Assembly: GCA_025823825.1 (NCBI GenBank)
Contig: GCA_025823825.1_4720.1
From: a phage
Direction: 5' to 3' (one strand)
Length of the DNA stretch: 64,000 bases
The notes beneath the pieces are model-generated. The model had not been told where the DNA came from. It did not search any database and worked only from the letters and a program-made list of their open reading frames with translations. Position numbers and translations under genes: made by a program. This document shows positions 6,141 through 63,639 of this stretch, one piece after another. Within the stretch, counting starts at the first letter, position 1; every line of letters starts with the position of its first letter.

Positions 6141-8621
6141 TTAAACGTCCTCGATAGGCAAAGGTTTAACAATCAAACGATTGAGCGGATTCGATAGACG
6201 CATACTGATAGGCTTATACGCAACATGATTCGTCTCACTTAGAGCCACTGATCTGAAACGACCGTTCAACCGTTTGTAAATCGGTTCTATCCAGAGACCT
6301 CGAAGATCACGTTTACGGAAACGTTGTTCGAACGGTTTGATTGGGGTTACGGTTAACCCACGCAACGACTCTGATGGCAGACGCTCACGAAGGTCGCGTG
6401 GTGCCCGACCTGGGAACGGTGCAAGCCACAAACCATCGAGCGGATTTTTACGGAAACGCAACGAGACAGGATCGCTAATGACTTGTGCCCAATATTGCGT
6501 ACTGAATCGAACGGTTTGGGTGTTCTCGTAACCACTACAATCACACCAGGTTGGTTTCGGAGGCGCTTCCAAACTTTCAACCGCCGATTCACGCCAGTTC
6601 GTCATCGGGTTGTTATCATGTACGAATTTGATAACTTCCGTAGCCTGGTTATCCGTATCATGAACGTTTGCCTGTGCCCAGTCTTCCCACAGTTCTTCAC
6701 TACCACTTACTAAACTCGAACCGAGACGAACGGCGATTTTATTTAGTGGTTTGATTGGGTCACTGTTGATTGTCTGGATAAAATGGATGGTGTAACTGCT
6801 CAATGTCTTAAGCAGCTGCAGCATTCCGTATTGAATATCCTTAAGACTGGTGACATCTTCCAAATCCTGGCCGGTGGCCTTTGTGAAGATATCGAGAGCC
6901 AGAATACCCGCCTCTTCTTGACTGATTGCGTCAAGCTCCCAATCCATCGATAAGAACCATTCCTTGTAAAGCTGTCCAATACCGAAGTCGACACCAACAT
7001 CCATGTAGAAGTTTTCAACGATTGCTTCAGCCATGCCTCGAGCTTGATAATGTTCTTGGAGCTGATACATGAACTGATGGCGACGCCAGCCCTGGTAAAT
7101 CTCGGTAACGGCGCTCAGAAACTCTTCAGTACTGACGACAGCACGCAGCGTCACTTGCTTATCCAAACACCACCAGATCAGTTTATCGGGAATGATAGCA
7201 GGATCGGTAATGCTACGGAGATGGTCGAATGTCGGTAGCGTTAACACCCTGACGTGGTTAGCATGGATCTTAGGTACTTCAATCAGCGTCATGCCCATCG
7301 AATAGTTCAGCAAATACAAGAACAGCTTGTATGCATCTTTCATCGACATCGTCATGGTATCACCCGTCACCGGGTTGGTTGTCGTTAACCGTGACTGATA
7401 CATGCCTATCGCGCTAAGATGAATCCATTCGTTCAGCAGGAAATCATACTTAGGATACAGTTCACTGTCTGTAAGGTCTTCGGCTTCACTTTCCAACACC
7501 TTGGTCGTTAAGGTATTGTTGTCATGCATCGACATCTTCTCTATCGTGCGGTTAAGCTCGGTATAATACTCCGCTTCGTTATCCCGCGCTAGAGGGAACT
7601 GTTGCTGCATCACGGTGGTGACCTTACGTCTTACCGTGCCATTACCGACGATCTCTTGAAGGTTAAGCGGTTTACGCTCCATGTAAACTGCGGGTTTTAA
7701 CGTCTGGGGTATCTCGGAAGCGTCTTGTTTGATCGAGAACGCACCGATTGGAATTCCACGATCGGTTAATACCTTTTGAATGAGCTTATCGTAGTTTTCC
7801 GTTCTGCCCATGTTTCTTTCAACGTAAGCGATGTTACGATAGAACCAGAGCATTTGGGATTCGGTCATGTATCGCTTGAATCGATCGAGACCTTGATGGC
7901 TTGCCAGATAACTCCAGATATGGAAGCTATGGGCATAATGGGTATGACAGTTTTCCCAACGAATACCTTTTATCATCTCAGGTATTTGTGTGAATAGGAT
8001 GGCGTATAGCGCAGGCCAATGAAGCATATCGACGCTCTCATATGCCGGATGTTCCCAGCGTCTGAAGTAATCGTCGATTTCTTGCTGTAAACGTGGAATA
8101 AGATTGGCCTCGCGTGACTCAACCTCTTGTGTATCGTACCAGAGAATCTCATGATTGCGTGCCGCAATTGCTTTCTCGATATCGATGGGGTTAAGGATAC
8201 CCAAGATCAACATACGTTGTTCCGGGTACCGCGCAATTAAACGATTGAAATAATCTCCACCATACGCGTATTCCCTTGCCGTCATGCGATGCCGTAACAT
8301 GTTTTCCTTGGTGAACTCGATCTCTTCGAGCGTATCCAGGGAATTTACGGTCATCATTGTCTGACAAGGATGATACTCGCCAGCGAGATTCATGTAGTAT
8401 AACCACGTGCGTGGGTCGTCCCCGACGGCCATCTGGTAGACTTCGGAAACCTTGAGGTTTAACCGTTCTGCCGTGATGTCGCTTTTAATAATCAGGGTGT
8501 CCGTTAGACGCTGCACGCTTTCCGAATAAAGCTGATAGTCAGTGTTGGACACGATCGGTCCTCCAAGGAGCCAGTGTAAATGAACGATATAAATAAAGGG
8601 CGCGTCGCCCTCGAACGTCAA
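6141..8621 (-). CDS. large hypothetical protein (~800 aa) with C-terminal triple R(F)RK-PLDGLW repeat
   Basis: Long ORF; track start overlaps the start of the divergent gene at 8580, so true start is probably GTG near 8552 (GGAGG 7 nt upstream). Confidence 0.7.
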   Translation of the reverse strand: MTFEGDAPFIYIVHLHWLLGGPIVSNTDYQLYSESVQRLTDTLIIKSDITAERLNLKVSEVYQMAVGDDPRTWLYYMNLAGEYHPCQTMMTVNSLDTLEEIEFTKENMLRHRMTAREYAYGGDYFNRLIARYPEQRMLILGILNPIDIEKAIAARNHEILWYDTQEVESREANLIPRLQQEIDDYFRRWEHPAYESVDMLHWPALYAILFTQIPEMIKGIRWENCHTHYAHSFHIWSYLASHQGLDRFKRYMTESQMLWFYRNIAYVERNMGRTENYDKLIQKVLTDRGIPIGAFSIKQDASEIPQTLKPAVYMERKPLNLQEIVGNGTVRRKVTTVMQQQFPLARDNEAEYYTELNRTIEKMSMHDNNTLTTKVLESEAEDLTDSELYPKYDFLLNEWIHLSAIGMYQSRLTTTNPVTGDTMTMSMKDAYKLFLYLLNYSMGMTLIEVPKIHANHVRVLTLPTFDHLRSITDPAIIPDKLIWWCLDKQVTLRAVVSTEEFLSAVTEIYQGWRRHQFMYQLQEHYQARGMAEAIVENFYMDVGVDFGIGQLYKEWFLSMDWELDAISQEEAGILALDIFTKATGQDLEDVTSLKDIQYGMLQLLKTLSSYTIHFIQTINSDPIKPLNKIAVRLGSSLVSGSEELWEDWAQANVHDTDNQATEVIKFVHDNNPMTNWRESAVESLEAPPKPTWCDCSGYENTQTVRFSTQYWAQVISDPVSLRFRKNPLDGLWLAPFPGRAPRDLRERLPSESLRGLTVTPIKPFEQRFRKRDLRGLWIEPIYKRLNGRFRSVALSETNHVAYKPISMRLSNPLNRLIVKPLPIEDV

Positions 8622-11489
8622 ATGAGCAATAATGACGTTGCGAAGGCACTCATGAACAAATTTGTCGCTCCTGCTCCGCAGTCACGTCTTTATAATACAC
8701 GTGATGCGGAAGGAGCGAACGGTCGTTTCGGGTTAGTTGTTCCCGACCAAATGACGATGAACACGGTTACGCGTGCGACCGCGACAAACATCGAGGATAA
8801 TAAAAACATCCTCGAGTTGTTCCCTGAACTTAAACGCGTGATGCAGATCTATGTTGCCGCGTTGACGAACCCTAACGATCTTAAGACGGTCGAGATGTTT
8901 ATCGACAGCGAAGATTTCCCCGGCAGAGTCGCAGAAATCGTTCAGCCGATGATCGATACCATCGACACGCATTTTAAGAATATCTATAAAATAAAGACGC
9001 TTATCCCTCGTATCATCGAAGACGTCTTCTTTATCAAGGGCAGTTATAACTTCGTTGTTCTGCCGGAAAGCACGCTCGACCGCGCCATTAATGGTAACGG
9101 TCAACTGAAACTTGAAGAATACGGATTTAAAGACAACCATTTTGCAAGTTGGGGGCTTCTAGGTAACGACAGTCGCAAACGCCACGAAAATCAATTACCT
9201 GCGACGGTTTCGATGGAAGATTATTTCTCGGGTGTTAATGAAACCATACCGTACGATCCTGTTGTTCGCATAGACAGCATCAAGTTTACCAATACCCTGC
9301 TTCGCGATAAGGACGGTAAATTCATTGAAGCGAAGATCGATATTCCGGATATGGTTACGGTTGTCGATAACCCAGACATCCTCCGCATGCCTATTCTGCA
9401 TCAACGTCGAGCAGCGACAGCAGTGCAGCGTGCGTTACGCGCAAACACGTTAGGAGGTAGTGGTTTGGTAACGCTGTCAGGCGATCCGACCCTAACCGCT
9501 AACCGACGTGAGCTGTCGCAAGAACAGGTTAACGAGATCTGGAATAAGCTCAACATCCAGCGCCACACCAAGGTATCGCCCGTTTACGCGCTGGCAACCC
9601 CAGATACGCTTGATCGTCAAAGCGTTGGCCATCCTGGCGTGATGCATGTACCACCTGAGGCATTAGAACCCGTACATGCGCCCGGTGATCCTGAGAACCA
9701 TATCGGGTATTTGGTTCAGTTGGATGAGTTTGGTTATCCAGTACGTTTGGTTGAAGATGCGGCGTATTACAAGCAGTTGGAAGGTCGGTTGTCGAAGATC
9801 ACCGCAGATATCGCAGGTACGTCAAGCAACGGCATGGCGAGCGAGATGATTGGTGCAGCCAAGAACATGATCCAAGGTACGTCATGTAATCAGGTAGACA
9901 TGTCGGCCTTCGTATCATCGTACGAATCGCTGATGCAACGTTACATTGTCGAACGTATCGTTAACGGTTATCTTGGCAGTGCGGTGGAGATCGGTGCGAC
10001 ATCGTCGTTTTATCTGTCGATGCTTGCTCGTAGCCTCGCTCACAAGCAGACCCGTGTTTTGTTTATTCCTCGAGAGATGGTGACTTACATCGCCTATGAA
10101 TACAACAAATACGGTATCGGTCGTTCGCTGCTTGAAAGTACGAAGATGATCTCATCGCAACGAGCCATGCTCATGGTTCAAGAACTGATGGCAAAAATCA
10201 AAAGTTCGTTGAACTATACGACGCTAAGCGTAATGCTTGAAGACACCGACAGAAACCCGGTCGATACCGTCGAACAAGCGCTGCATAGTTTCGCTCGTGT
10301 CTACCAGTCTGGTTTCCCGTTGGGTGAAACTAACCCGATGGATATCATCAACGCGTACGAACGAAGCTCGATTCGATTGAAGGTTGAGGGGAATAACCCA
10401 CGCTTCCCGAAATTGAATACAGACGTCAGTGTTGAGCAGCGTAACTATCAGTCTCCTGATAATGAGCTGATGGATCGTTACCGTCGTGACCATTTCATGG
10501 GCTTGGGTGTGTCTCCGGAGATTATCGATACTTCCTACCAATCTGAATTCGCAGCTTCTGTGATTACAGCTAACGCGATGCAAGAGAAACAGTTCACGGT
10601 TTGTCGTGAGGTGATCACGAATGGGTTATCGGACCACATCAAGAAATATACGGCATACAGTCCCGTGTTGTTGACGTCGTTACGAAACACGGTTCGTGCG
10701 AACATGTCTAAGCTTTCCCAGGCACAATTGAAGCAGCTTTTTGGTAGCGATTTCGAAAACGGTGTTATCCGTAACGTTAACGCCTATCAGGAGATTGACG
10801 ACCAATCAGCAACAATGGATCTGGATTACACTAAACCAGAAGTCCAGGAAGTTATTGCCGATGCTTATGTGTCCATGTTCTTAAACAGCCTGCGTGTGCG
10901 TTTACCGGATAGCAATGCTCGTCGCCTTGAAGATCAGGTACGTGAATATAATCAGTACAAGGAAGCGATTACTGCGCAACTTGATGATTATTTAACGCCC
11001 GATTACGTCATGGGTCTGGGTGGGGTTGATGAAACAACGCTGCAGATGATCCGCGCATGCATTATTGGTACCGCGATGCGTACGTGGGCAAAAGAGAACA
11101 ACTTCAATCAGGAGCTGGCTGATCTCTTCAGTCTTGACGATAAGAAGAATGCCGTGCAAGATTGGAAACGTATGTCCATGGAACATATTGAAGTCATGGG
11201 TAAATGCATGGGTGATTTTGCATTGTATATTCAGAATCTGACGAAGAAGATTGAAGAGAAGATGGGAGCTCAAGCACAGGACGGTAGCGTTTCATCTGAT
11301 GGTTCGTGGTCATCCGATTCAAGTAGCGATACCGGTTCTTCTGATGACTTCGGTGGCGGTGACGATTTCGGAGATACCGATTTCGATACCGAAACGATGG
11401 AGGAAACCTCAACAGAAGAAACAACCACATCTGAGGATACGACGACCGACACAACGTCAGAAGACGATACTTCAGGTGACATTGTCTAA
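8580..11489 (+). CDS. large hypothetical virion-type protein (969 aa) with acidic Ser/Thr/Asp-rich C-terminal tail
   Basis: Long ORF, AAGGAG 9 nt upstream of ATG; C-terminus SSDGSWSSDSSSDTGSSDDFGGGDDFGDTDFDTE... Confidence 0.75.
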   Translation: MNDINKGRVALERQMSNNDVAKALMNKFVAPAPQSRLYNTRDAEGANGRFGLVVPDQMTMNTVTRATATNIEDNKNILELFPELKRVMQIYVAALTNPNDLKTVEMFIDSEDFPGRVAEIVQPMIDTIDTHFKNIYKIKTLIPRIIEDVFFIKGSYNFVVLPESTLDRAINGNGQLKLEEYGFKDNHFASWGLLGNDSRKRHENQLPATVSMEDYFSGVNETIPYDPVVRIDSIKFTNTLLRDKDGKFIEAKIDIPDMVTVVDNPDILRMPILHQRRAATAVQRALRANTLGGSGLVTLSGDPTLTANRRELSQEQVNEIWNKLNIQRHTKVSPVYALATPDTLDRQSVGHPGVMHVPPEALEPVHAPGDPENHIGYLVQLDEFGYPVRLVEDAAYYKQLEGRLSKITADIAGTSSNGMASEMIGAAKNMIQGTSCNQVDMSAFVSSYESLMQRYIVERIVNGYLGSAVEIGATSSFYLSMLARSLAHKQTRVLFIPREMVTYIAYEYNKYGIGRSLLESTKMISSQRAMLMVQELMAKIKSSLNYTTLSVMLEDTDRNPVDTVEQALHSFARVYQSGFPLGETNPMDIINAYERSSIRLKVEGNNPRFPKLNTDVSVEQRNYQSPDNELMDRYRRDHFMGLGVSPEIIDTSYQSEFAASVITANAMQEKQFTVCREVITNGLSDHIKKYTAYSPVLLTSLRNTVRANMSKLSQAQLKQLFGSDFENGVIRNVNAYQEIDDQSATMDLDYTKPEVQEVIADAYVSMFLNSLRVRLPDSNARRLEDQVREYNQYKEAITAQLDDYLTPDYVMGLGGVDETTLQMIRACIIGTAMRTWAKENNFNQELADLFSLDDKKNAVQDWKRMSMEHIEVMGKCMGDFALYIQNLTKKIEEKMGAQAQDGSVSSDGSWSSDSSSDTGSSDDFGGGDDFGDTDFDTETMEETSTEETTTSEDTTTDTTSEDDTSGDIV

Positions 11490-18115: not shown

Positions 18116-20338
18116 TCAGTTAGTCTGAACCGGCAGCTTGATGTTTTCGGTGTAGACCTTACGCAGGTTCACAACGTTAATCAGACCCAGCAGCGGGCAG
18201 TTGTTAACGAAGCGGCAGCGCGGCTGAACCATGGTTTCTTTAGAAACCTGACCGTTACGGGTAACCTGAGCAACAGATACCAGTTCCGGTACATACAGGA
18301 ACATACCGAAGGTCAGCGGATCCGGAGAACCCTGGATACCACGAGACAGGGTCACGAAGATCTTATCGCGCAGCATGACGTTCGGGTTATCTACAACCAC
18401 GAAGTTGAAGCTTACACCAACGGTACGGAAATCGCCATCGGTCTGCAGGAACTGCGGGATGTAGTTGTCAGTTGCTACTACGCAACGCGGTTTCTCATCA
18501 GCGTTGGAAGACAGCAGCTGCAGAGCTGGCTGATAACCAGACTCGGAGTACATGCGGTATGCCATCTCACGAATCACGTTCATGATCGCAGCAGACACTT
18601 CAGCACGACGTTCTGCAGTGGTGGTACCCTGAACAGATTTCTCCAGGTCCAGATTGATTTCTTCGAACCACGGACGGATCAGGTAACGACCGAAACCTTC
18701 GATCTGGATGTCACCGAACTGACGGAAGCGAGAGGTCGCAACCGCTTTCAGTGCGTCTTTGTAGCTGAACAGTTTCTCAACCATCAGGTTGTCGAAACGT
18801 GCGTTAGCAGCTTGGATCAGAACGTCCAGGTCAGCAGCGTTTTCTTCCCAATCCAGCGGACGAGGAATGGAGAACGGAGCCAGCAGGCCGATTGCGTAAC
18901 GTTCTTGCTTCATGTTGAAGTCAAGGTGCTTACCGCGCTCACGACGGTTGCTGTTGTTACGGCGGATACGCAGTTCGTAACCAACCAGTTTGAAGCTCAG
19001 GTCTTCAGCCAGTTGTTTGAACTCTTCGCTCTTACGCGGTTGTTCGATGTTGTCCTGATCAACCAGGCGATACAGTTCAGCGTTAGCGCCGTTAACACGC
19101 AGACCCGCTTTCTCTACGTTGGAAGAACCGTAAACTTCGATCGCCAGCTGAGCAGCGGATTTCGCATCGATGATGTCCTGCAGCGCTTCAGCTTTCGCAC
19201 CTTTAACGTCTTTGGTGTTCTCATCAACGAAGATGGAGTGGGTGTCGAACGCCAGGGTCATTTTGCGGAAGTCGCCTTCCAGGGATTTCTGGAAACCGTT
19301 GGTGATCAGACCAGATACGTCGAACGGTACGTAAGAGGTTTTGCTGTGCTTGGTAGATTTGATTTCTACCAGGATTTTGGTCAGCGTGATCTGGGCGTCC
19401 AGCGCGTCGGTGTTGTCGCTGTAACCGTTAGCCAGAATGCTGTCGTCTTCAGCGATACCGATCATGTCGATCAGTTTATCAACAGCCAGGTAAGACGTTT
19501 TATAAGTTACGCCTTTAATTTCGATGTCGCGCGGAGCAACGATCGTTTTATCAACGAAGTACTGCGCGTTGGCATCGTCAGCACGATAGATCGGATGCAG
19601 ATCGGTCACGTCGTTGGACAGAACGTCGTTGTACATGAACGCATCCAGCAGCGGACGACGTACCCAATCAGCCGGAGTACCGTCAGCGTTACGACGCAGG
19701 TGGTTGAACACCAGCGGGCGACGGAAAGATACGTCGTAACCGATCTGGTTCGGAGCCAGAACGATGGTGTTATACAGTTCGTTACCCATGCGGCTCAGAC
19801 GAGAAGCCTTCACGTTGAACACAACGGAGTACGGCATCATGTCACGCAGTTCTTTCTGGTCGTAGGACAGCTGAACCAGTTCTTCAGATTCGCAACCGCA
19901 GGAATCAGCAGCCATCATGACGAAGTTAGAGCTGTCAACTTCACGACCTGACGGAGTGGTGCTGATGTTCATGGAACGTGCTTGTTTAGCATATTCTACC
20001 GGGTTACCATGAGCCAGCATGATCAGTGCTGCTGCACGAGCCTGCTGTGCGTTCATGGTGAACAGCTGTTCTTCAATACGCTGCTTCTCTTCCGGAGTGG
20101 TGGTTTCGAAGCCCAGCATGGACAGAACCGGTTCTTCGGCTTTACGGATGTCGCTGCTGAAGCTCTTAACATCCATTTCGTTAACCAGTTTGTCCATGGA
20201 TTTGAAATCAACCTTAGAAGCAGATTCCATAGACAGGAAGGTGTTCTCCAGACCTTTGTCTGCTGGTTTGCTACCATTAGCGGTCAGGAACTGGCGAGTG
20301 GCCGCGACCTGTTGGCTAAGAAGGGTTTTATCATTCAT
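18116..20338 (-). CDS. highly expressed virion protein, best guess major capsid protein (740 aa); tail sheath is the alternative
   Basis: ATG start with aagga RBS; strongest host-optimal codon bias in the window (CTG/CGT/GGT/AAC); size fits jumbo-phage capsid proteins; identity not verifiable without search. Confidence 0.6.
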   Translation of the reverse strand: MNDKTLLSQQVAATRQFLTANGSKPADKGLENTFLSMESASKVDFKSMDKLVNEMDVKSFSSDIRKAEEPVLSMLGFETTTPEEKQRIEEQLFTMNAQQARAAALIMLAHGNPVEYAKQARSMNISTTPSGREVDSSNFVMMAADSCGCESEELVQLSYDQKELRDMMPYSVVFNVKASRLSRMGNELYNTIVLAPNQIGYDVSFRRPLVFNHLRRNADGTPADWVRRPLLDAFMYNDVLSNDVTDLHPIYRADDANAQYFVDKTIVAPRDIEIKGVTYKTSYLAVDKLIDMIGIAEDDSILANGYSDNTDALDAQITLTKILVEIKSTKHSKTSYVPFDVSGLITNGFQKSLEGDFRKMTLAFDTHSIFVDENTKDVKGAKAEALQDIIDAKSAAQLAIEVYGSSNVEKAGLRVNGANAELYRLVDQDNIEQPRKSEEFKQLAEDLSFKLVGYELRIRRNNSNRRERGKHLDFNMKQERYAIGLLAPFSIPRPLDWEENAADLDVLIQAANARFDNLMVEKLFSYKDALKAVATSRFRQFGDIQIEGFGRYLIRPWFEEINLDLEKSVQGTTTAERRAEVSAAIMNVIREMAYRMYSESGYQPALQLLSSNADEKPRCVVATDNYIPQFLQTDGDFRTVGVSFNFVVVDNPNVMLRDKIFVTLSRGIQGSPDPLTFGMFLYVPELVSVAQVTRNGQVSKETMVQPRCRFVNNCPLLGLINVVNLRKVYTENIKLPVQTN

Positions 20339-20487: not shown

Positions 20488-21108
20488 TCATAAACGACGC
20501 AGGCGATAATGGATGGAACGATTGGTGCAATATGAACGGAACAGCGGCAATTGCGCAACTTCCGCAAGACTCATATTAATTCGCAGGTGTTCAATAACGG
20601 CGCTGTAGTTATCAGCAATACGATCGCTCAATAACTCTTCTGCCAATAAAGGAAGACAATCGACAACAATCGCGATCACATCCTCATTAACATAACGCAC
20701 CCGAACACTCAACGGACGTTTGTCTGGGCTGTAAGTTGGATCCGCCAAACGTCGTTCAATATCACGCGGATAGCTCGTCAGTAAATGGTAATAACCATTG
20801 TCATAACGATTGATGTACTCGCACAGCACATCAACATTCTTCTCTGGCGGCAAACCTGTTTCGTCATAGTGATACGCAAACATACCACCAAGCAGGTTGT
20901 TAAGATGAACTGCAGGGTTCGCTTGTTCGTGTTCTTTCGTGATGAAGAAAGGCACGTTTTGAGCTGCGAAATAAAAACCTACATCATTGGGCGATAGTAT
21001 GCCGAAAAGACTTTTAGGATCTAATAACACCTGTAAGTCATCACGCGCATTTCGAATGATCGCGTGTTCTACCCAATTCGGAACGACGAGATATCGGAGT
21101 TCCTTCAT
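20488..21108 (-). CDS. hypothetical protein (206 aa)
   Basis: ORF with ATG start and agagg RBS; divergent from the gene at 21148. Confidence 0.65.
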   Translation of the reverse strand: MKELRYLVVPNWVEHAIIRNARDDLQVLLDPKSLFGILSPNDVGFYFAAQNVPFFITKEHEQANPAVHLNNLLGGMFAYHYDETGLPPEKNVDVLCEYINRYDNGYYHLLTSYPRDIERRLADPTYSPDKRPLSVRVRYVNEDVIAIVVDCLPLLAEELLSDRIADNYSAVIEHLRINMSLAEVAQLPLFRSYCTNRSIHYRLRRL

Positions 21109-22758
21109 TATGATTACCTCTTTGCAAGTATCGAAAGGATTGAGTCGATGGACCCAAAACAGATAGCCATTAAGATTATTACGTTACTGTTTCGTAATGC
21201 ACAATTGAACCATCCCGATCCCAGTACGATCGAACATGTTAAATCCGTCTTAGATAAAGTCGAACCCCCGAAAAACCATCTCGCTACAGACGTAGATAGA
21301 GAGGTTTTCAGCAACCTGATGAACACCATTCATTGGATGCTGGAACAACCGTTATCGGAACCTTTCGATAAACAACAGTTGTTACAAAGGATACGTTTAG
21401 ATTGCCTTGAACAAAGCAATCTTTACGAGATTCTTGCCGACGGACTGTACGATATCGAAGACGACGCTCATATCAGTAAGGTCTGTTCGCTCTATTACAA
21501 TGAATTACGTAATCTGATTACTCGTCGTCGTGTTTTCGAAACCTTTAGAAACACGTACATGGATATCAGTAACGGGCGACTTGGGGATAAAGAATTTTTC
21601 GATGCGATGGCGAATTTGAAATTATCGCTAGACAGTATCGAAATGGATACCGAAAATCCCGAAGAGATGTCGTGTATGATTGACGGCTTTATCGCTGACA
21701 GCGAAGACGATATCGAGAAAGTTGAACGTATGTTCGTCAAAGCGATGGAACGTAACAGTCCTGAAGGTGGATTTGTAACCGGCTGGCAAGGCTTTAATAA
21801 AATGTTGGGGTCGGTCGGTGTTTTACGTCGCGGTACCTTAGGACTGATTGGTGCAATGCAGCACCGGAACAAGTCAGGTGTGTTGTTAAAACTGTTCACG
21901 CATCTGGCATTGTACAATAAACCCCATTTCTTTTTTCCGGAGCGAGCAAAGAAAGCACTACTGATTCACTTGTCAACAGAAAACGAAGTAGAAGAAAACA
22001 CGCTTCAGATATACAAGAACATGCGAGAACAGGAAACAGGCGAATATGTCGATATTCGTAAGATTGACCCTCGCGAGGCATCACGTTATGTGTTGAAGGT
22101 GTTCAACGATGCGGGTTTCTCTGTTTGTATGCGTCGTGTTGATGGGATGAGTTATAAACAACTCGCTAATCTCATCGACCATTTCGAACGCATGGGTTAT
22201 GAAGTCATGGCGTTGTTCATTGACTATCTGAAAATGTTCTCATCGGAAGGGTTGGATAGAAATGGACCGACCGGCGCATGGCTCCAAGAACTCTTCAACA
22301 AAGTACGTAACCTCTGCAGCGTTAAACGTATTTTAGGTATGACCGTACACCAGCTGTCATCTGATGCGAAGATGCGTGCGCGTGATGGCAACGATGAAGA
22401 GTTCGTTGACCAAGTCGCGGGTTTAAGTTACTGGGATGGTTGTAAAGGGATTGACCGTGAGATTGACCTCGAAGTGATTGTTGATATCGTTAAGGAACCG
22501 GGCAAACGTCAAAGCTGGCAAGTCTTTGCGTTAGGGAAAGACCGTCAACCGGATAACGGCTCAACGAAACCTGAAGACAAACACTTCGCGATGCCATTCC
22601 AAACCATCGGGATGCTTCCTGATGATTACGGTAAGAAAGCAGTGTATTGCCGCAAGGTTGGCGGACAACCTGTCTCCGAGGGAGGTAAAGGTCCGTGGAA
22701 CAAGTTCGATGAAAACGCAGCACCGAGTAATGAATTACAATTTGACTTAGAATTTTAA
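21064..22758 (+). CDS. hypothetical protein (~536-564 aa)
   Basis: Long ORF; track start is GTG and overlaps the divergent gene, likely true start is ATG at 21148 with aagga upstream. Confidence 0.7.
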   Translation: MFYPIRNDEISEFLHYDYLFASIERIESMDPKQIAIKIITLLFRNAQLNHPDPSTIEHVKSVLDKVEPPKNHLATDVDREVFSNLMNTIHWMLEQPLSEPFDKQQLLQRIRLDCLEQSNLYEILADGLYDIEDDAHISKVCSLYYNELRNLITRRRVFETFRNTYMDISNGRLGDKEFFDAMANLKLSLDSIEMDTENPEEMSCMIDGFIADSEDDIEKVERMFVKAMERNSPEGGFVTGWQGFNKMLGSVGVLRRGTLGLIGAMQHRNKSGVLLKLFTHLALYNKPHFFFPERAKKALLIHLSTENEVEENTLQIYKNMREQETGEYVDIRKIDPREASRYVLKVFNDAGFSVCMRRVDGMSYKQLANLIDHFERMGYEVMALFIDYLKMFSSEGLDRNGPTGAWLQELFNKVRNLCSVKRILGMTVHQLSSDAKMRARDGNDEEFVDQVAGLSYWDGCKGIDREIDLEVIVDIVKEPGKRQSWQVFALGKDRQPDNGSTKPEDKHFAMPFQTIGMLPDDYGKKAVYCRKVGGQPVSEGGKGPWNKFDENAAPSNELQFDLEF

Positions 22759-56581: not shown

Positions 56582-58333
56582 ATGAGCGAACAAGAACGAA
56601 AACCTAAGAAGAAACTGCTCGGTATTCAATGTCGACACATCAGTTATAACGAAGCGAACGATGGCAGCAAGAACGACCTCATGATCGCAAAAGAGATCAT
56701 GTTCTTTGATGACAATACGCAAGCGACGAACCTTCGCTTCTTTGAGAATTACAAACGTCCGTTTTGGGTGACGGTAGAGAGTAAACGTAAGAACAAATAT
56801 AAAAAGGAAAGCGAGAAGCTCTCGCATGTGCGTCGCTACGATGTCCGCCAAAGCGAACTGGTTGAAAAGATCAGCTCGGTACTTTATAAAAGACGTGCTG
56901 ACGATAACACCCGTTTACAGCAGCTTGCACGGAGTCCATACCTCTATGGAACGGACGTTAGCGCCAGCTGTTATTTAAAAACCCAGTACAACACAAAATG
57001 GCCGGAATACGTCGATAAATTACCCGCTTCCATTGCCTGTTTCGATATCGAAACCGACGTTGTCCACGGACACGGTAAGATCGTTTGTATGTCTATTACA
57101 ATGGGATACAATGCGATACTTTGCTATACCAAGGACTTCGTTGGTCATATTCCGAATGCCATTGAGAAAACCCATGAGAAGATTCGATATTACCTGGCCG
57201 AACGTCTGAATACCAAAGAAGATCCCCACGCATTCGAAAAATATCAGTACGATGTTCGAATCGTAGAAAGCCCGGCACAAGCGGTCATCCAATGCATGCA
57301 GAAGGTTCACGAATGGCAGCCGGATTATCTCCTTGGCTGGAATATCGCGTTCGATATTCCGCGTATGCTCCAGGCACTGAACGAGGAAGGGTATCGTCCC
57401 GAGGATGTTTTCTCCGATCCTCGCGTACCACCTAAGTATCGTATTGCTCGCTGGGTGCCACCGAAGACCGACAAGGTATCTGCTTCAGGTCGTAAAACCA
57501 ACCTTACCCTCGAGCAAACCTGGCCGATGTTTTATACGATGGCTACGTATCAGGTTATGGATGCGATGTGTGGTTATAAGTTCGTTCGTTTAGGAAGACC
57601 GGATGAAGGACGCTATTCACTCGATGCGGTATTAGAGCGAAATAAATGCCATACGAAATTAAAAGCAATTCCTGGTACAGAAGGGTTCACGGAGCTCGCC
57701 TGGCACGAAGAGATGCAAACGAACCATCAAATCGACTACGGCGTATATAACCTTTGGGATAACCAGGGTATTGAGGCGTTGGACCAGAAAACAAAAGACT
57801 ATTCGATGACCATCCCTATCCGTTTAGCGGCGTCGGATTTGAAAGATTTCAGTTCTAACCCTAAACGTATCTGCGATAAACTTTTCTTCGTTTATCTTAA
57901 CCGTGGGGAAGTCATGGGATGTACCGCTGACGACATGACCCAGGAAGAAGATAAGTGGGTTATCTCACGAGCTGGACATATCGTCACATTACCATGCGAT
58001 CTCATGGCTGACAACGGCATTCATCTCTTCTGGGATATGCCGAACCTGAGAAGTTATATCCGTCTATTCGTTGCAGACCTTGACATTAGCAGTTCATACC
58101 CAAATGGGCAGATCCTGTTGAATCTATCCAGAGCATGTGTTTTTCGTGAGCTCTCGCGCATTGAGGGCGTCTCTGACTATCAATTCAGGAAGTTAGGTAT
58201 CAACTTTATTACCGGAGGTAAAACGAACGCTGTAGACTTCTGTAGAATCGTTTATAAAGCACCGTCGATGTTTGAACTTTTAGAACATTTCGATGCGACG
58301 CGTCCAAAAGAGGAAGCGCGGACCATCGAATGA
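56582..58333 (+). CDS. family B DNA polymerase, N-terminal part (3'-5' exonuclease domain plus polymerase motif A)
   Basis: 583-aa ORF; Exo I CFDIETD, Exo II GWNIAFDIP, Exo III YNLWD, motif A-like DISSSYPNG; no motif B/C before stop. Confidence 0.7.
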   Translation: MSEQERKPKKKLLGIQCRHISYNEANDGSKNDLMIAKEIMFFDDNTQATNLRFFENYKRPFWVTVESKRKNKYKKESEKLSHVRRYDVRQSELVEKISSVLYKRRADDNTRLQQLARSPYLYGTDVSASCYLKTQYNTKWPEYVDKLPASIACFDIETDVVHGHGKIVCMSITMGYNAILCYTKDFVGHIPNAIEKTHEKIRYYLAERLNTKEDPHAFEKYQYDVRIVESPAQAVIQCMQKVHEWQPDYLLGWNIAFDIPRMLQALNEEGYRPEDVFSDPRVPPKYRIARWVPPKTDKVSASGRKTNLTLEQTWPMFYTMATYQVMDAMCGYKFVRLGRPDEGRYSLDAVLERNKCHTKLKAIPGTEGFTELAWHEEMQTNHQIDYGVYNLWDNQGIEALDQKTKDYSMTIPIRLAASDLKDFSSNPKRICDKLFFVYLNRGEVMGCTADDMTQEEDKWVISRAGHIVTLPCDLMADNGIHLFWDMPNLRSYIRLFVADLDISSSYPNGQILLNLSRACVFRELSRIEGVSDYQFRKLGINFITGGKTNAVDFCRIVYKAPSMFELLEHFDATRPKEEARTIE

Positions 58334-58382
58334 ATCAAGTATGTTGATCCTCGTTTAACAAAAAAAGAAAACGCATGCGAAG

Positions 58383-58435
58383 CCCCTCCCCCTGGCGGAA
58401 GCCGGAGGGAGGGGTGGAGGTTTTATGCGTTTTTA
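58383..58435. terminator. hairpin element, copy 11, with T-run on plus strand (terminator of DNA polymerase fragment gene)
   Basis: CCCCTCCCCC-tggcggaagccgg-AGGGAGGGG-tggaggttttatgcgttttt. Confidence 0.6.
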
Positions 58436-58879
58436 ATTATTGCTGCTGGGGTTATCGCCCGGATTATATTCGATGCTGTAGGCGACGTCGCGGTCTGTCG
58501 TATGAACGACAAGCGTGACGGGGAAATCATAATGCGCGGTTTTGTCTCGAACGAACGGGGTAAAGAGATCCGTATAACGTATTAAGTCTTCCCTGGTGTA
58601 ATCGGAAGGGAAGAAGGCATCGATGGTTATTGAATCTTCATAGAGGCGTATGATCAGCTTATCCAGAAGGTTGCTATATTGGTTAGCTGGGGTGACGTTC
58701 AGGTGACAGAAGTCACCGTCTTCTGCTTCTCGCAATACCCATACCGTGGTATCCTGTAACGTATTTTCAAGGATCTCGAAAATGCAGTTTGCTGTAAGTC
58801 TTAGTTTATTTGTTACTTCATGGTTAGGGGAATAATGCTCACGAATGTTTTTCACTGCGTCTTTGATAGAGAAAGTCAT
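58433..58879 (-). CDS. small protein, paralog family A (C-terminal DFPVTLVVH...EYNPGD motif)
   Basis: Track ORF 58433-59110 trimmed to internal ATG at 58879 (MTFSIKD...) because a separate-frame ORF occupies 58893-59186. Confidence 0.55.
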   Translation of the reverse strand: MTFSIKDAVKNIREHYSPNHEVTNKLRLTANCIFEILENTLQDTTVWVLREAEDGDFCHLNVTPANQYSNLLDKLIIRLYEDSITIDAFFPSDYTREDLIRYTDLFTPFVRDKTAHYDFPVTLVVHTTDRDVAYSIEYNPGDNPSSNN

Positions 58880-58892
58880 TGCTGCTGCTCCT

Positions 58893-59186
58893 TTAAAAGA
58901 TATCAAGCCATGAGGATGGAGGAACCAGTTCGCTGGTAAAGTAATCGCCACTGATACCACTATCATCAAAGTGACGTTCGTTGTAACACTGGACGAGCTT
59001 ACCTCCACGTTCTTTCTGATACCATCCAAGGATACTATTAAGACCTCTGTCCACGCATTCGAATGCTTGAGTAATAACATCCTCAACGACGGAGGCTGCC
59101 GTGGGACCATTGAATAGACGATCTAAGCGCTTTTTCATCGATTTGGTTTTCTCGTTCATGATTTCTTTTCCTGTTATAATCGGCAT
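58893..59186 (-). CDS. small hypothetical protein (88-97 aa)
   Basis: ORF; first ATG coincides with hairpin-flank TATG; an alternative start 27 nt in has agga upstream. Confidence 0.45.
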   Translation of the reverse strand: MPIITGKEIMNEKTKSMKKRLDRLFNGPTAASVVEDVITQAFECVDRGLNSILGWYQKERGGKLVQCYNERHFDDSGISGDYFTSELVPPSSWLDIF

Positions 59187-59227
59187 ACAACCCTTCCCCG
59201 GCCTTGACGGCTAGGGAAGGGGCTATG
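59184..59227. terminator. hairpin element, copy 12
   Basis: cata-caaCCCTTCCCC-ggccttgacggcta-GGGAAGGGG-ctatg. Confidence 0.5.
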
Positions 59228-59235
59228 CTACGTTG

Positions 59236-59664
59236 TTATGCTTCGCAATCAGCTGAAGGCGTCGCGCCTTTCTTACCAGCGATACGCCAAATCCGACACG
59301 CTGGGTAATGGTTAACCTCTAGAGAGCAAGGAATGTTATATTTCTCTTCCAGCGCATAAAGACATTTCGTTAGCTGCTCCAGCGCGTTCTCGTCGTGTCG
59401 TAACGCGTGGTGACCTAATCGATGTTGGTCGTTCTTTATATACGCCTCGAAGAGAACATGTTGGCGATGTACGCTGACGTTTACAGCCTCGAGTATAGCT
59501 TGGTCGAGCATACGACTAAAGCACATCAACGAGTCAGATACGTTTTCTCGCTTAACCAGATCGATCATGGCGGGAATATACGAATGGTCGATGTTATCGA
59601 TGACCGCTTTAGCGACGGAATCAGCAACGTTCATCTTTTTAATCCCTAGTTTGTTATTGATCAC
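59236..59664 (-). CDS. small protein, paralog family B member 1 (142 aa)
   Basis: Shares V(A/V)KAV(I/N)DNIDH...MIDL(V/I)K...EEKYNIP(C/F)SLEVN with 59671-60066. Confidence 0.6.
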   Translation of the reverse strand: MINNKLGIKKMNVADSVAKAVIDNIDHSYIPAMIDLVKRENVSDSLMCFSRMLDQAILEAVNVSVHRQHVLFEAYIKNDQHRLGHHALRHDENALEQLTKCLYALEEKYNIPCSLEVNHYPACRIWRIAGKKGATPSADCEA

Positions 59665-59670
59665 GTATAT

Positions 59671-60066
59671 TTACTCTTTGACGTCAGTTGTCGTTTCGAC
59701 ATGCTTCTCACTACTGACGTACCAGAGCAGGTACGTTGGGAAAAGATTGACCTCTAAGCTAAATGGGATATTGTATTTCTCTTCCATTTTGCAGAGATGT
59801 TCTTTAAGTAAATTTCTCGCGTCTCTGTCACCACGAACAGAGTGCCAGTCTAGTTCTTTGTTCTCCTTTACCAGGATCTCTACGATGATACGTTGCTCGT
59901 GAACCTCGGTTTTCACAGCGGCAAGTAAATCGCTGCTATCAAAACGGGTAAAACGAATGTATGAACCAGGTGTTTTTTCTTGTTTAATAATATCGATCAT
60001 GGTAGAAATGCGCGGATGATCGATGTTGTCGTTAACAGCTTTAACGATGGATTCTACAATGCTCAT
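59671..60066 (-). CDS. small protein, paralog family B member 2 (131 aa)
   Basis: Tandem duplicate of 59236-59664 by protein similarity. Confidence 0.6.
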   Translation of the reverse strand: MSIVESIVKAVNDNIDHPRISTMIDIIKQEKTPGSYIRFTRFDSSDLLAAVKTEVHEQRIIVEILVKENKELDWHSVRGDRDARNLLKEHLCKMEEKYNIPFSLEVNLFPTYLLWYVSSEKHVETTTDVKE

Positions 60067-60098
60067 TTTTTATCCTTAATGTTATCGATTTGGAAATA

Positions 60099-60866
60099 TT
60101 ACTTATTTTTGCTTTCTTTATAGACAGTTGTTACCCACGATGGGAAAGCCGGATGGAAACAGAGCGTGAACGTAACTGTCGTATCGTATTTAAACGCACA
60201 GTTCACTAACCGGGTATCTAACGTTTTCCTTAATCCGTCATCATCGTTATCGATGATGGTCATATCTCTTAATATCCCAAGCACGTTAACGCCATCGGGT
60301 GTCTGGGTTACGACAAGTCGTCGTAATGGCCCGCATGTATAGTCACGTACAAATCCTTTCTTCGGGTCCGATACCCTGTTTAACGCATCGTGATTTTTGA
60401 TGAATTCATCGGCGATACAATAGGTTTGTTCCCTTGCTTTATCGGGATCGTATTCTGCTAATAGTTCCTTCGTGTCGAACGTTATCATGTTATTATCATT
60501 CGATTCAGAAGGGAAACATAAAACTAAACGAACAGGGTATTCGTATTGATCTGTTCTTGTTTCGAAAGCATTAGCTAGACACGGCTTGTATGCCTTTGCG
60601 TCGACATTGTCCAAACATGGATGCAATAATGCATGAATAACGGCACCATCGTCAGTTAAACCGAATTCCAGAAATTGTACCCTATCAGTATCCGCTACGG
60701 TTTTCTGAAGGTACGCTTTACCGTTAACAATATCGGTATCCCACATATCGTCGTTTAACGATTCTTCAAACTTATCGAATATATGGTTTACGAGATTGAC
60801 GAGTTCATCAATACGGCACTGTTGGTTGAATTCGATTAATCGTTGAACTTTATCTTTGATAGACAT
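60099..60866 (-). CDS. small protein (255 aa), probable paralog family A
   Basis: ORF; YEYPVRLVLCFPSESNDNNMITFD resembles the family A C-terminal motif. Confidence 0.65.
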   Translation of the reverse strand: MSIKDKVQRLIEFNQQCRIDELVNLVNHIFDKFEESLNDDMWDTDIVNGKAYLQKTVADTDRVQFLEFGLTDDGAVIHALLHPCLDNVDAKAYKPCLANAFETRTDQYEYPVRLVLCFPSESNDNNMITFDTKELLAEYDPDKAREQTYCIADEFIKNHDALNRVSDPKKGFVRDYTCGPLRRLVVTQTPDGVNVLGILRDMTIIDNDDDGLRKTLDTRLVNCAFKYDTTVTFTLCFHPAFPSWVTTVYKESKNK

Positions 60867-60868
60867 GA

Positions 60869-61327
60869 TTACCCATTAGCTCCTTCTTCGTCTGGAGAGT
60901 ATTCCATCGTGTAGAATTCATAACCATCGGAAAACTTGAGTGTTAATGTAATAGGGAAATCGCACGGCATAGCTGATTTCGTAAATGCGTTATTAGCAAC
61001 ATCGGCCAACCGACGTATAGCATCAGTCCCGCTGACGCTGAACGGTAGTTGTATGTTGATAAGGATGCGGTGCTTGTAAACATGGAAAACAACGGTACTG
61101 TCAAGATAAACGCTATGGAACGGTATTGTTGGGATGCGTTCCACGATGGTAAAATACGTCCCGTCATTATCGCTATGTCCCACCGACCAAATATCGGATT
61201 TGCGTAGATTTTGTTTGAGAGATTCGATGCTTCGAGTGACGGTCTCATCAACAGGCGTGACGTAAGTGTCTTTATGCGAGTCGAAAAGTTCGTTGACGTT
61301 AGATTCGAATGAATACATTGTTGCCAT
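60869..61327 (-). CDS. small protein, paralog family A (152 aa)
   Basis: C-terminal CDFPITLTLKFSDGYEFYTMEYSPDEE. Confidence 0.6.
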   Translation of the reverse strand: MATMYSFESNVNELFDSHKDTYVTPVDETVTRSIESLKQNLRKSDIWSVGHSDNDGTYFTIVERIPTIPFHSVYLDSTVVFHVYKHRILINIQLPFSVSGTDAIRRLADVANNAFTKSAMPCDFPITLTLKFSDGYEFYTMEYSPDEEGANG

Positions 61328-61393
61328 TATTCTACCTCAATGGTTTAACCGATACGTGCCCCACCTAACAAGGGACACGTTATCGTTGATTAA

Positions 61394-61894
61394 TTACTCT
61401 TCTGTGTTTTCATTATCGGGATCGTAGTGGAATTCGAACAGCCCTGAACCGTCGTGTCCGTTGATTGTTAGTATAACGGGCATATCGAATCCTCGGACGC
61501 GCGAATGAAAACATTGTGCTAATTTTAGTTTGGCGTATGCCGCTATTTCATTGACGGCAATACACGACTCACCTGTTATACTCAGTATAACGTCGATACT
61601 AACAACGTTGTCGTGCAACGCAAAACGCCAGCGATCGATACGATTATTATCTTTATCGGTTGTCTCGTTTACGAGATAGACTTTATCGTCAACCGACAAA
61701 GCGGGACTCCAGCAACGATCGTTTATTAAATTCGCCTGGAGTTTTAGTATCGTCTGATCGATAATATCCCAACACGTAACCAGCGTGGTGTCAGGCACTG
61801 AGTAGAGAAGGGCGTGCACTTTATCCTTTATTTTAAGTGCTTCCGCAGGACGTCCGCAAATACCATGCATTTCAACTTTCTTATTCATATTCAC
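61394..61894 (-). CDS. small protein, paralog family A (166 aa)
   Basis: C-terminal FDMPVILTINGHDGSGLFEFHYDPDNE. Confidence 0.6.
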   Translation of the reverse strand: MNMNKKVEMHGICGRPAEALKIKDKVHALLYSVPDTTLVTCWDIIDQTILKLQANLINDRCWSPALSVDDKVYLVNETTDKDNNRIDRWRFALHDNVVSIDVILSITGESCIAVNEIAAYAKLKLAQCFHSRVRGFDMPVILTINGHDGSGLFEFHYDPDNENTEE

Positions 61895-61931
61895 TTCTTT
61901 CTTAATCTAAATGTTAGTTGGGGTGGGATGC

Positions 61932-62564
61932 TTACATGCTTTCTAGCATATTGACGATCATGGAACCCATACCGAAACTCGGTCTTTCACCGATGTACTC
62001 AGCAAGCTGGCGATGGACGTCTTTTGGATTTCCTTCTTCACCATCGGCATCGATGTAAACCGAAAAAGAAACCGAATCGGAATCCACGCTGATAACCAGA
62101 CGACGTTCATTGCGTTCCTTGAGCGTGTCGACGATAGATGCTTTCAGTACCGGGATCGCATTCATCGCGTGCAAGATATCTCCATCGGGTTTCGGCAGAT
62201 CGATCTTTTCTTTCAGGTCGATATTGATGTTGGTTACAATTGGGTTGAGGTCGACCTTGACGTAATCGTTAGGGTACATGCGAATAATCGCACGATCGAT
62301 ATCTGAACCGTAAAAGTCAACACGTGGCTTTAACACTTCTTTGTTTGGATCCATGTTTTCATCCATACCCGCCCGCAAGAAACGTTCTACGTTATCCAGT
62401 TCACGATAAACTGACGCTTCGATTTCTTTCAGATAGTTGGCTGCGGTTTCATGTTCTTTACGCAGCTCGTCTTTAAGGAGCTGTACGGTGGTTTCACTGG
62501 AACGAATGCTGTTCGCGAATTGGGTAATTGACATATCGAATTCCTTAAATTCTCTTGAGTTCAA
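61932..62564 (-). CDS. small hypothetical protein (~200 aa)
   Basis: ORF; probable start at internal ATG near 62534 (MSITQFANS...) with aagga RBS. Confidence 0.6.
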   Translation of the reverse strand: MNSREFKEFDMSITQFANSIRSSETTVQLLKDELRKEHETAANYLKEIEASVYRELDNVERFLRAGMDENMDPNKEVLKPRVDFYGSDIDRAIIRMYPNDYVKVDLNPIVTNINIDLKEKIDLPKPDGDILHAMNAIPVLKASIVDTLKERNERRLVISVDSDSVSFSVYIDADGEEGNPKDVHRQLAEYIGERPSFGMGSMIVNMLESM

Positions 62565-62582
62565 TTAATGATGAAAAGCTGT

Positions 62583-62612
62583 AAAAAAAAAAAAGGTGGG
62601 GCGAACCCCACC
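62583..62612 (-). terminator. canonical intrinsic terminator for the minus-strand gene 62638-63063
   Basis: ggtgggg-cgaa-ccccacc hairpin preceded on plus strand by A12, so the minus-strand RNA ends hairpin + U12. Confidence 0.75.
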
Positions 62613-62637
62613 AAAACGTCAGACACACGCGGGAAAA

Positions 62638-63063
62638 TTAATTCAGTGATGCATATAAGGCATAACGACTGTAGATCTCAACCGCCGGTCCGTTATGCGT
62701 TAACAGACCGTCTCGGCTGTAATACTGGAAAAATGAATAACGTTTGTCGAAGTGATAAACAAAAGCAATGTCTTTGCCGTCAAAACCTGTGATGCGTGGT
62801 CTGTTTTTATCTAGCAATGCTTTGACTTTTAACAGTGTTGCCGCACGTGCTTTAACGTTAGGGATCAAGCCATCACAATCGATATAAACAGTGTAACCTG
62901 TTTCAGATGTTGCGACGGTCGTATTGCGATTGACGCGGAAGATTTTTGTTTCGTATGTACTATCTTCAAGAATTGGGTTTTGTTTTTCGTATTTTCGTTT
63001 ACGCAGAAATTCTACAACGGTGATATAGTTAGCGGTAATATGCCCGGTTATAGCTTGTATCAT
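62638..63063 (-). CDS. small hypothetical protein (141 aa)
   Basis: ORF followed on its 3' side by a canonical hairpin plus T-run terminator; conserved upstream element shared with 25745-26545. Confidence 0.6.
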   Translation of the reverse strand: MIQAITGHITANYITVVEFLRKRKYEKQNPILEDSTYETKIFRVNRNTTVATSETGYTVYIDCDGLIPNVKARAATLLKVKALLDKNRPRITGFDGKDIAFVYHFDKRYSFFQYYSRDGLLTHNGPAVEIYSRYALYASLN

Positions 63064-63138
63064 CTTGACATCCTCTTATATCGGATTGGTTGCAATTGTC
63101 TTAAATAGATGATAAGATATTTTGCTCTTATCACTAAG

Positions 63139-63162
63139 GTAATGTAGTCGTGAAATAAACTG
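63139..63162 (-). promoter_or_regulatory. second copy of conserved upstream element (CATTAC variant) for 62638-63063
   Basis: Plus strand gtaatgtagtcgtgaaataaactg versus gtaatatagccatgaaataaactg at 26609-26632. Confidence 0.45.
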
Positions 63163-63184
63163 CGTTAACAAGAAATAAAAAACA

Positions 63185-63240
63185 GCATAGAAACCTCCTC
63201 CCCCATCCTTCAAGAGGACGGTGGGAAGAGGGAGAGATTA
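63185..63240. terminator. hairpin element, copy 13 (degenerate)
   Basis: cata-gaaaCCTCCTCCCCC-atccttcaagaggacggt-GGGAAGAGGGAGAG-attaaatg; imperfect stem. Confidence 0.4.
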
Positions 63241-63639
63241 AATGTCGTGGACGGCAATGCCGTTTAACCAGCAATACAGCTTAACGCGACACGGATACCG
63301 CTTCGTTGCAGCAACCATTTCATCACGTAAACGCTGGTAGATTTCATCCTGGTGTTCACGTTCAATGGGGTAATCAGCCCAACATTCGATCATGACGTCA
63401 CCATTCGTCAGAATCGTCGTACGCATCCTGTCCTGGATACGGCGGTCTTTCCCGGCGTTAGGGAAATACATTCCTTCAGTACGAATAAGGTCGCCGCAGG
63501 GCATGACTAACCATTCGTTCGTTTTGCCGGTATTCTTATAATCCATTACAGCTTGCATTGCGGTGTCAACGCTAAAAGAAACATAATTCCAAACGGATGT
63601 CCAACGATAGATTGCGGGTTGTTCGAGTGTTTCGTTCAT
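63238..63639 (-). CDS. small hypothetical protein (133 aa)
   Basis: ORF flanked by hairpin elements on both sides. Confidence 0.6.
   Translation of the reverse strand: MNETLEQPAIYRWTSVWNYVSFSVDTAMQAVMDYKNTGKTNEWLVMPCGDLIRTEGMYFPNAGKDRRIQDRMRTTILTNGDVMIECWADYPIEREHQDEIYQRLRDEMVAATKRYPCRVKLYCWLNGIAVHDI

Follow-up and report, generated by a model that had tools for sequence, protein, structure and literature searches.

Motif A lies on the N-terminal subunit of a split family B DNA polymerase in a Goslar-like phage and would form part of a composite active site

The DNAP-N gene and its motifs

The present account deals with a polymerase gene on a stretch of phage DNA of 64,000 nucleotides (NCBI GenBank assembly GCA_025823825.1, contig GCA_025823825.1_4720.1), which is referred to, at its full length, as the window. 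The window DNA is 95-96% identical to that of Escherichia phage vB_EcoM_Goslar, a nucleus-forming jumbo phage of the genus Goslarvirus with E. coli as its host, and it contains hallmark genes of the chimalliviruses, namely those for a subunit of the non-virion RNA polymerase (nvRNAP), a divergent DnaB-like helicase, and a major capsid protein of the phiKZ type; it belongs to a Goslar-like chimallivirus. The gene in question encodes DNAP-N, a protein that combines the proofreading exonuclease motifs of family B DNA polymerases (PolB) with polymerase motif A, and that ends before motifs B and C. The positions of the features are compiled in Table 1.

Table 1. Features of the DNAP-N gene, its surroundings, and the hallmark genes of the window
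Feature	Position (nt)	Strand	Basis
DNAP-N coding sequence, complete, 583 aa, intron-less allele	56582..58333	+	Open reading frame list; PHROG 3011, E 5e-178 over full length
Exo I, FDIETD (D155, E157), residues 154-159	57041..57058	+	Invariance in 44 homologues; pairs with RB69 FDIEV
Exo II, WNIAFDIP (N254, D258), residues 253-260	57338..57361	+	Invariance; pairs with RB69 WNVESFDIP
Exo III, YNLWD (Y389, D393), residues 389-393	57746..57760	+	Invariance; pairs with RB69 YNIIDVY
Polymerase motif A, DLDISSSYPN, residues 499-508	58076..58105	+	Invariance and hhalign to RB69 gp43
Empty group I intron homing site, D499 / L500	58078/58079 (within 58076..58081)	+	blastn breakpoints; translation of the exon join
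DNAP-N C-terminal tail, residues 523-583	58148..58330	+	Family-conserved; RB69 alignment ends at ~522
Probable bidirectional intrinsic terminator hairpin, A-run 5', T-run 3'	58367..58434	.	Between convergent genes; RNA folding
nvRNAP subunit, phiKZ gp123 homologue, 599 aa	14505-16304	-	PDB 7ogp, E 6e-41
phiKZ-type major head protein	18116-20338	-	PHROG 3231
Divergent DnaB-like helicase	21064-22758	+	PHROG 3213

The open reading frame (ORF) of DNAP-N begins with ATG and ends with TGA at 58331-58333, 75 residues past N508. The original prediction, which was made from the sequence of the window, had listed Exo I, Exo II, Exo III, and a motif A-like DISSSYPN, followed after about 70 residues by the end of the ORF without motifs B and C, and this description has been borne out in each of its parts. 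In an alignment of 44 DNAP-N homologues, which are 33-66% identical to the window protein, ten residues of the motifs do not vary (D155, E157, N254, D258, Y389, D393, D499, D501, Y506, and P507). The exonuclease carboxylates of Exo I (DxE), Exo II (Nx2-3[FY]D), and Exo III (Yx3D) are all present and in the proper order. Comparison of the same alignment with RB69 gp43 by hhalign gave a probability of 97.1% and an E value of 5e-11, with a single collinear alignment extending from Exo I through motif A up to RB69 residue 432. In this alignment D501 is paired with D411 and Y506 with Y416 of RB69, in accordance with motif A of the form DxxSLYPS, and, downstream of it, the segment NLSRACV (family consensus NISKETT) is paired with RB69 NISPETI. 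A search of the PDB with a hidden Markov model, matching RB69 404-430, arrived at the same pairing of D501 and Y506. Judged from these alignments, motif A of the window ORF is genuine and not the chance match that had initially been considered; D501 is predicted to be the catalytic metal-ligand aspartate and Y506 the steric-gate tyrosine.

The AlphaFold model of DNAP-N has a mean predicted local distance difference test (pLDDT) score of 84 and is confident over residues 10-450. For the chain alone, ten-residue means drop to 34-61 over residues 451-550, and values of 73-85 are reached there just for the helices at 551-570; the low confidence over the palm fragment is ascribed to half a palm domain being modelled without its partner. 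When the model was submitted to Foldseek, RB69 gp43, Pol epsilon, E. coli Pol II, and the T4 polymerase were the top matches in the PDB (E 1.5e-12).

Natural end of the gene

The stop after motif A is natural, and the gene is intact and not fragmented. The PHROG 3011 profile ("DNA polymerase") is matched end to end, that is, residues 8-576 of the protein correspond to positions 5-570 of the 576 positions of the profile (E 5e-178). Homologues of DNAP-N occur in 291 phage records, with a coverage of 80% or more of the protein in 287 and of ~95% in the listed matches. A search of 5.8 billion proteins returned 209 clusters; among the 120 that were listed, most have a length of 555-640 aa and some end near residue 490, the latter subset being attributed to a group I intron at motif A, which is dealt with below. 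When 1.84 billion representatives were searched with a profile, 1604 matches were obtained, and no fusion of DNAP-N to a C-terminal polymerase half is found among the best 150 of them, which span 450-894 aa; the search was judged on these 150, and a distant fused form could lie beyond them. The single long match is P0161, a metagenomic DNAP-N relative of 894 aa with an acidic, low-complexity C-terminal extension of ~330 residues that has no Pfam match.

A fragment left by truncation or frameshift from a once contiguous polymerase, the remainder of which would lie just downstream in another frame, would likewise present an ORF that ends between motifs A and B, and this is the sole point in its favor. 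The probability of such a fragment is negligible. The stop position is conserved, as is evident from the coverage of the PHROG 3011 profile and from hundreds of homologues of 555-600 aa; the identical 583-amino acid protein is encoded on at least eight independent metagenome contigs, one of them 233 kb in size; and the stop is followed by a strong hairpin, probably a terminator, downstream of which the genes are on the minus strand. Motifs B (Kx3NSxYG) and C (DTD) are present neither in the ORF nor in any other part of the 64-kb window. A profile of the partner chain DNAP-C found nothing in the window's six-frame translation, and tblastn found nothing below E 1.9. A frameshift or sequencing error near 58333, which had been named as a possible cause of the early stop, was also checked, and there is no continuation in any frame of the window. 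The second half is encoded by a separate gene ~95 kb away in Goslar. Taken together, these results already refute the fragment or pseudogene explanation.

The partner chain DNAP-C

The ORF alone is not a complete PolB, since motifs B and C are located on the separate protein DNAP-C. The supposition that the catalytic C-terminal part is encoded elsewhere has held for Goslar, where gp244, annotated as "DNA polymerase" (174314-176467, minus strand, 717 aa), carries both motifs. It adjoins the chimallin gene and is ~95 kb distant from gp068, the Goslar counterpart of the window gene with the same flanking genes; gp068 and gp244 are on opposite strands. The match of gp244 to the Pfam family PF20286 (divDNApol, "Divergent Family B DNA polymerase") has an E value of 2e-204. 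Both the full-length match of the window protein to PHROG 3011 and the co-occurrence of a PF20286 partner agree with the split PolB of phiKZ-related phages that had been proposed at the outset. The genus counts of DNAP-N and DNAP-C, over 291 and 308 phage records, respectively, are identical (Pseudomonas 81, Erwinia 62, Salmonella 24, Vibrio 23, etc.).

Residues invariant in 40 DNAP-C homologues are R122 and K126; K152, N156, S159, and G160; S404-D405-T-D407-S408; and K484 and Y486. In the Goslar protein, motif B reads KLDNNSLSG (152-160) and motif C SDTDS (404-408), and the KxY motif is formed by K484 and Y486. Upstream of motif B there is no aspartate with a conservation of 70% or more, and there is no invariant aspartate between motifs B and C (D221, 85%; position 283, 90%). 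The AlphaFold model of DNAP-C (pLDDT 89) includes two long finger helices (110-163), the motif C hairpin (401-411), and a thumb, together with a helical insert at ~200-395, between motifs B and C, in which D221 and position 283 are situated; its best matches in the PDB are the RB69 and T4 polymerases.

In Goslar-like metagenome contigs, the DNAP-C gene is likewise found beside the chimallin gene, with a small SH3DP gene upstream. On two of these contigs (L013/L014), a 137-aa SH3DP (PF20287) is encoded at 5290-5703, directly upstream of DNAP-C, and chimallin ~1.4 kb downstream. The SH3DP-DNAP-C neighborhood was recorded by Iyer et al. 2021, and a possible role of SH3DP as a polymerase accessory subunit was raised (PMC7824862).

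Split point and proposed composite active site

On RB69 gp43, the aligned part of the N chain stops at residue 432, corresponding to residue ~522 of the window protein, and the profile of the C chain is aligned from RB69 434/435 onward, across the fingers. R122/K126 of DNAP-C are thereby placed on R482/K486 of RB69, and K152/N156/G160 on K560/N564/G568, which are the finger residues that bind the triphosphate in the RB69 ternary complex. According to these sequence comparisons, the chain break would be located just past the motif A strand-helix, ahead of the remaining palm strands and the fingers, at about residues 432-434 of RB69 gp43. With a break at this site, the polymerase active site should be composite and would be formed solely in the heterodimer. 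Two segments are without an RB69 counterpart, namely ~60 residues at the C-terminus of DNAP-N (523-583), which include the family-conserved residues G529, R536, N541, N549, and P561, and ~74 residues at the N-terminus of DNAP-C (1-74). The DNAP-N tail and the DNAP-C head would probably clamp the two chains together.

The window ORF would, with high probability, encode DNAP-N as an obligatory chain of a heterodimeric family B replicase with a composite polymerase site. In this enzyme, DNAP-N would provide the PolB N-terminal domain, the 3'-5' proofreading exonuclease, and the first palm strand-helix with motif A (D501, Y506), while DNAP-C, with its 717 aa, would supply the remainder of the palm along with the fingers and the thumb, including R122/K126, motif B, motif C, and KxY. 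To the shared site, DNAP-N would thus give one metal-ligand aspartate and the sugar-discriminating tyrosine, and DNAP-C the second catalytic aspartate pair (DTD), the deoxynucleoside triphosphate-binding residues of the fingers, and the thumb. For the phage of the window, the composite site is inferred. A chain cut right after motif A would make polymerase catalysis, not necessarily the exonuclease, dependent on the heterodimer. That the split might serve as a licensing device, by which the replicase becomes active once both chains, encoded by distant genes, have been imported into the phage nucleus, is a doubtful idea with an outside chance of being correct.

Several points weigh against the heterodimer with a composite site. 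Taken alone, the alignment by which the start of DNAP-C is positioned on RB69 has little statistical weight (E 0.009 and, for the HMMER domain, E 46); its backing is collinearity and the landing of invariant residues on functional ones, and the alignments of motif C and KxY to RB69 give stronger support than this start region. The interface role of the tail and the head is putative, and DNAP-C is known from Goslar, whose DNA is 95-96% identical, and from Goslar-like contigs. Two published assignments also differ. In the 2011 study, both active-site aspartates were placed on the C-terminal protein of phage EL (D229, D398) (PMC3201878), and the exonuclease was termed stand-alone by Iyer et al. 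2021 (PMC7824862).

These assignments, and the detection of the exo domain alone, and weakly (E 0.008), when DNAP-N is searched against Pfam, would suit a stand-alone proofreading exonuclease in which motif A is a relic or a fortuitous resemblance and the C-terminal protein houses the entire polymerase site. Such an arrangement is improbable. D499, D501, Y506, and P507 are invariant at merely 33-41% overall identity, and the segment follows RB69 404-432 residue for residue, NISxET included. DNAP-C has no conserved aspartate before motif B and no invariant one between motifs B and C that could take the place of D501, and an aspartate after motif B would run counter to the A-B-C motif order that is canonical in family B polymerases. 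As to the residue called D229 of phage EL, no sequence of the DNAP-C alignment has an aspartate at that numbering. Moreover, homing introns have hit the motif A codons in two distant lineages, and catalytic sites are their typical choice. The sequence evidence puts the motif A aspartate and tyrosine on the N chain, and the 2011 and 2021 papers, which locate the entire active site in the C-terminal chain, look wrong on this point.

A group I intron at motif A

In Goslar (NC_048170.1), a group I intron of 1762 nt interrupts the DNAP-N gene at 81187-82948 (positions 7498-9259 of the extracted Goslar locus L001); it is inserted between the codons for D499 and L500 of motif A and carries gp069, the gene of a NUMOD1/HNH endonuclease. 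The intron matches Rfam RF00028 with an E value of 8e-9 and a score under the gathering threshold. It is unannotated in Goslar, the same record listing two other group I introns. As the intron was missed, gp068 (YP_009820753.1, "DNA polymerase") was cut in RefSeq at 499 aa, ending in '...FVAD' and a stop, and exon 2, which resumes with LDISSSYPN, was lost. The window gene is the corresponding intron-less allele, with an empty homing site.

The spliced Goslar protein and the window protein differ in 2 of their 583 residues. The genes differ in 81 nucleotides, 28 of which are no more than 50 nt away from the intron site (window 58028-58128); all 28 are synonymous, and their clustering near the site is pronounced (Fisher p = 1.4e-16). 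Six further intron-less Goslar-like contigs (L007-L012, positions 4448-4547) encode the same protein and are, around this site, mosaics of the two synonymous haplotypes. The mosaic flanks suggest co-conversion during homing, selection on the endonuclease target, or both.

Interruption at this place is seen in other relatives as well. Of the 120 homologue clusters listed, about 17 terminate at HVAD or HVADLD, or no more than four residues beyond (P0042, P0055, P0063, P0077, P0080, and others). In the 39% identical locus L017 (ENA ERZ28616137 scaffold_6), an ORF-less group I intron is found at motif A (6480-7195; RF00028, E 1e-4), and exon 2 reads '...STYPNVQTILNISRETT', resuming at STYPN. Going by these sequences, motif A is a recurrent intron site across distant chimalliviruses. 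Clusters P0093, P0105, and P0113 end at ~455-468, and this region may be a second intron site. Warfare by intron endonucleases between chimalliviruses is known for an RNA polymerase gene (PMC11620839); the literature search returned no report of it for the split DNA polymerase gene.

That the Goslar copy contains a group I intron encoding an HNH endonuclease, and that a split-intein PolB has been reported in phage MIJ3 (PMC6892783), could suggest that the split itself was made by a mobile element (an intron, an intein, or a homing endonuclease), as is the case in certain T4-like or PA5oct-like phages, with the parts being rejoined as RNA or protein. This has very little probability. The Goslar intron is located inside DNAP-N (D499|L500) and not at the break between the N and C chains, and it is missing from the window; the N and C genes of Goslar are ~95 kb apart and on opposite strands; and intein blocks are found neither at the C-terminus of DNAP-N nor at the N-terminus of DNAP-C, where Pfam detects none either. 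In addition, the phiKZ enzyme consists of two separate chains (PMC13648687).

Relation to known polymerases

The two-piece architecture itself is already known and not new in kind. The split polymerase was first predicted by Kazlauskas & Venclovas 2011 (PMC3201878), and the term "split subunit DNA polymerase" has been used since (PMC5105663). According to the preprint by Basu et al. 2026 (PMC13648687), DNAP-N and DNAP-C of phiKZ form a stable 1:1 complex, which is active, was resolved by cryo-electron microscopy (cryo-EM) at 2.1 A, and is stimulated by a third subunit, the RNase H/clamp-like protein Rhc. Goslar gp190, annotated as "ribonuclease", may be the counterpart of Rhc. The question of the composite site has probably been settled already by this 2026 cryo-EM structure; our PDB sequence searches with DNAP-N and with DNAP-C matched no structure of the phiKZ polymerase.

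The window gene belongs to the same protein family as the phiKZ gene, with 39% identity over 95% of the length in tblastn against phiKZ-group Pseudomonas phages, and the phiKZ and Goslar-type systems are alike in their two-gene architecture and in the partner family PF20286. The window gene comes from another genus (Goslarvirus, host E. coli), and nothing functional sets it apart. What differs from the 2011 assignment is the placement of motif A, which was then put on the C-terminal protein (PMC3201878) and is here assigned to the N chain.

In RB69/T4 gp43, the N-terminal domain, the exonuclease, and motif A follow in the same order and are collinear with DNAP-N, while the fingers, motif C, KxY, and the thumb are aligned by DNAP-C. 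RB69 gp43 is one polypeptide, whereas the chimallivirus enzyme would be cut at ~432, with ~60 residues added to the N chain and 74 to the C chain. Other PolBs made of two polypeptides occur in some T4-like phages of Aeromonas (gene 43A/43B) and in Methanothermobacter, whose PolB has two subunits. The split-intein PolB of MIJ3/PA5oct is likewise a family B polymerase encoded as two polypeptides (PMC6892783). In these other split PolBs, the halves are adjacent genes with a mobile element between them, or are joined by an intein, whereas the chimallivirus genes are far apart and without a splicing element; moreover, the chimallivirus split, unlike the others, is fixed across the whole virus family. 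A further difference from RB69 is the ~190-residue helical insert between motifs B and C of DNAP-C, which is apparent in the model and has also been described (PMC7824862).

For genome annotation, the consequence is modest: "DNA polymerase, N-terminal subunit (exonuclease + motif A)" is the proper label, in place of "truncated polymerase". If the composite site is confirmed, this would be a natural replicative polymerase with a catalytic centre made up from two polypeptides, and, if true, the composite site would bear on the assembly of the replisome within the phage nucleus. Worth recording are the refined split point, the assignment of motif A to the N chain, and the intron missing from the annotation, together with the mosaic sequence around it.

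Neighboring genes and the probable downstream terminator

One of the hallmark genes of the window, that of the nvRNAP subunit, carries the label "polymerase" both in PHROGs and in Goslar (gp039). As a candidate for the missing polymerase half, it was rejected, the product being a phiKZ gp123-type nvRNAP subunit.

The hairpin between the DNAP-N gene and the genes downstream of it has a folding energy of -42.9 kcal/mol (z = -5.86), and none of 200 shuffled sequences was as stable. It escaped a simple terminator scan with a strict T-run criterion and is unannotated in Goslar. The original prediction had noted a hairpin plus T-run followed by minus-strand genes, and folding together with the ORF list confirms it; the hairpin is probably a bidirectional terminator of convergent genes.

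Downstream of the polymerase gene, a row of small genes encoding 130-255 aa occupies the minus strand at 58433-63639. Several of the translations are alike, with recurring '...YEFPVxLxL...' and '...EKYNIP[CF]SLEVN...' endings, which suggests that they form a paralogous family. The number and order of its members differ among the Goslar-like contigs.

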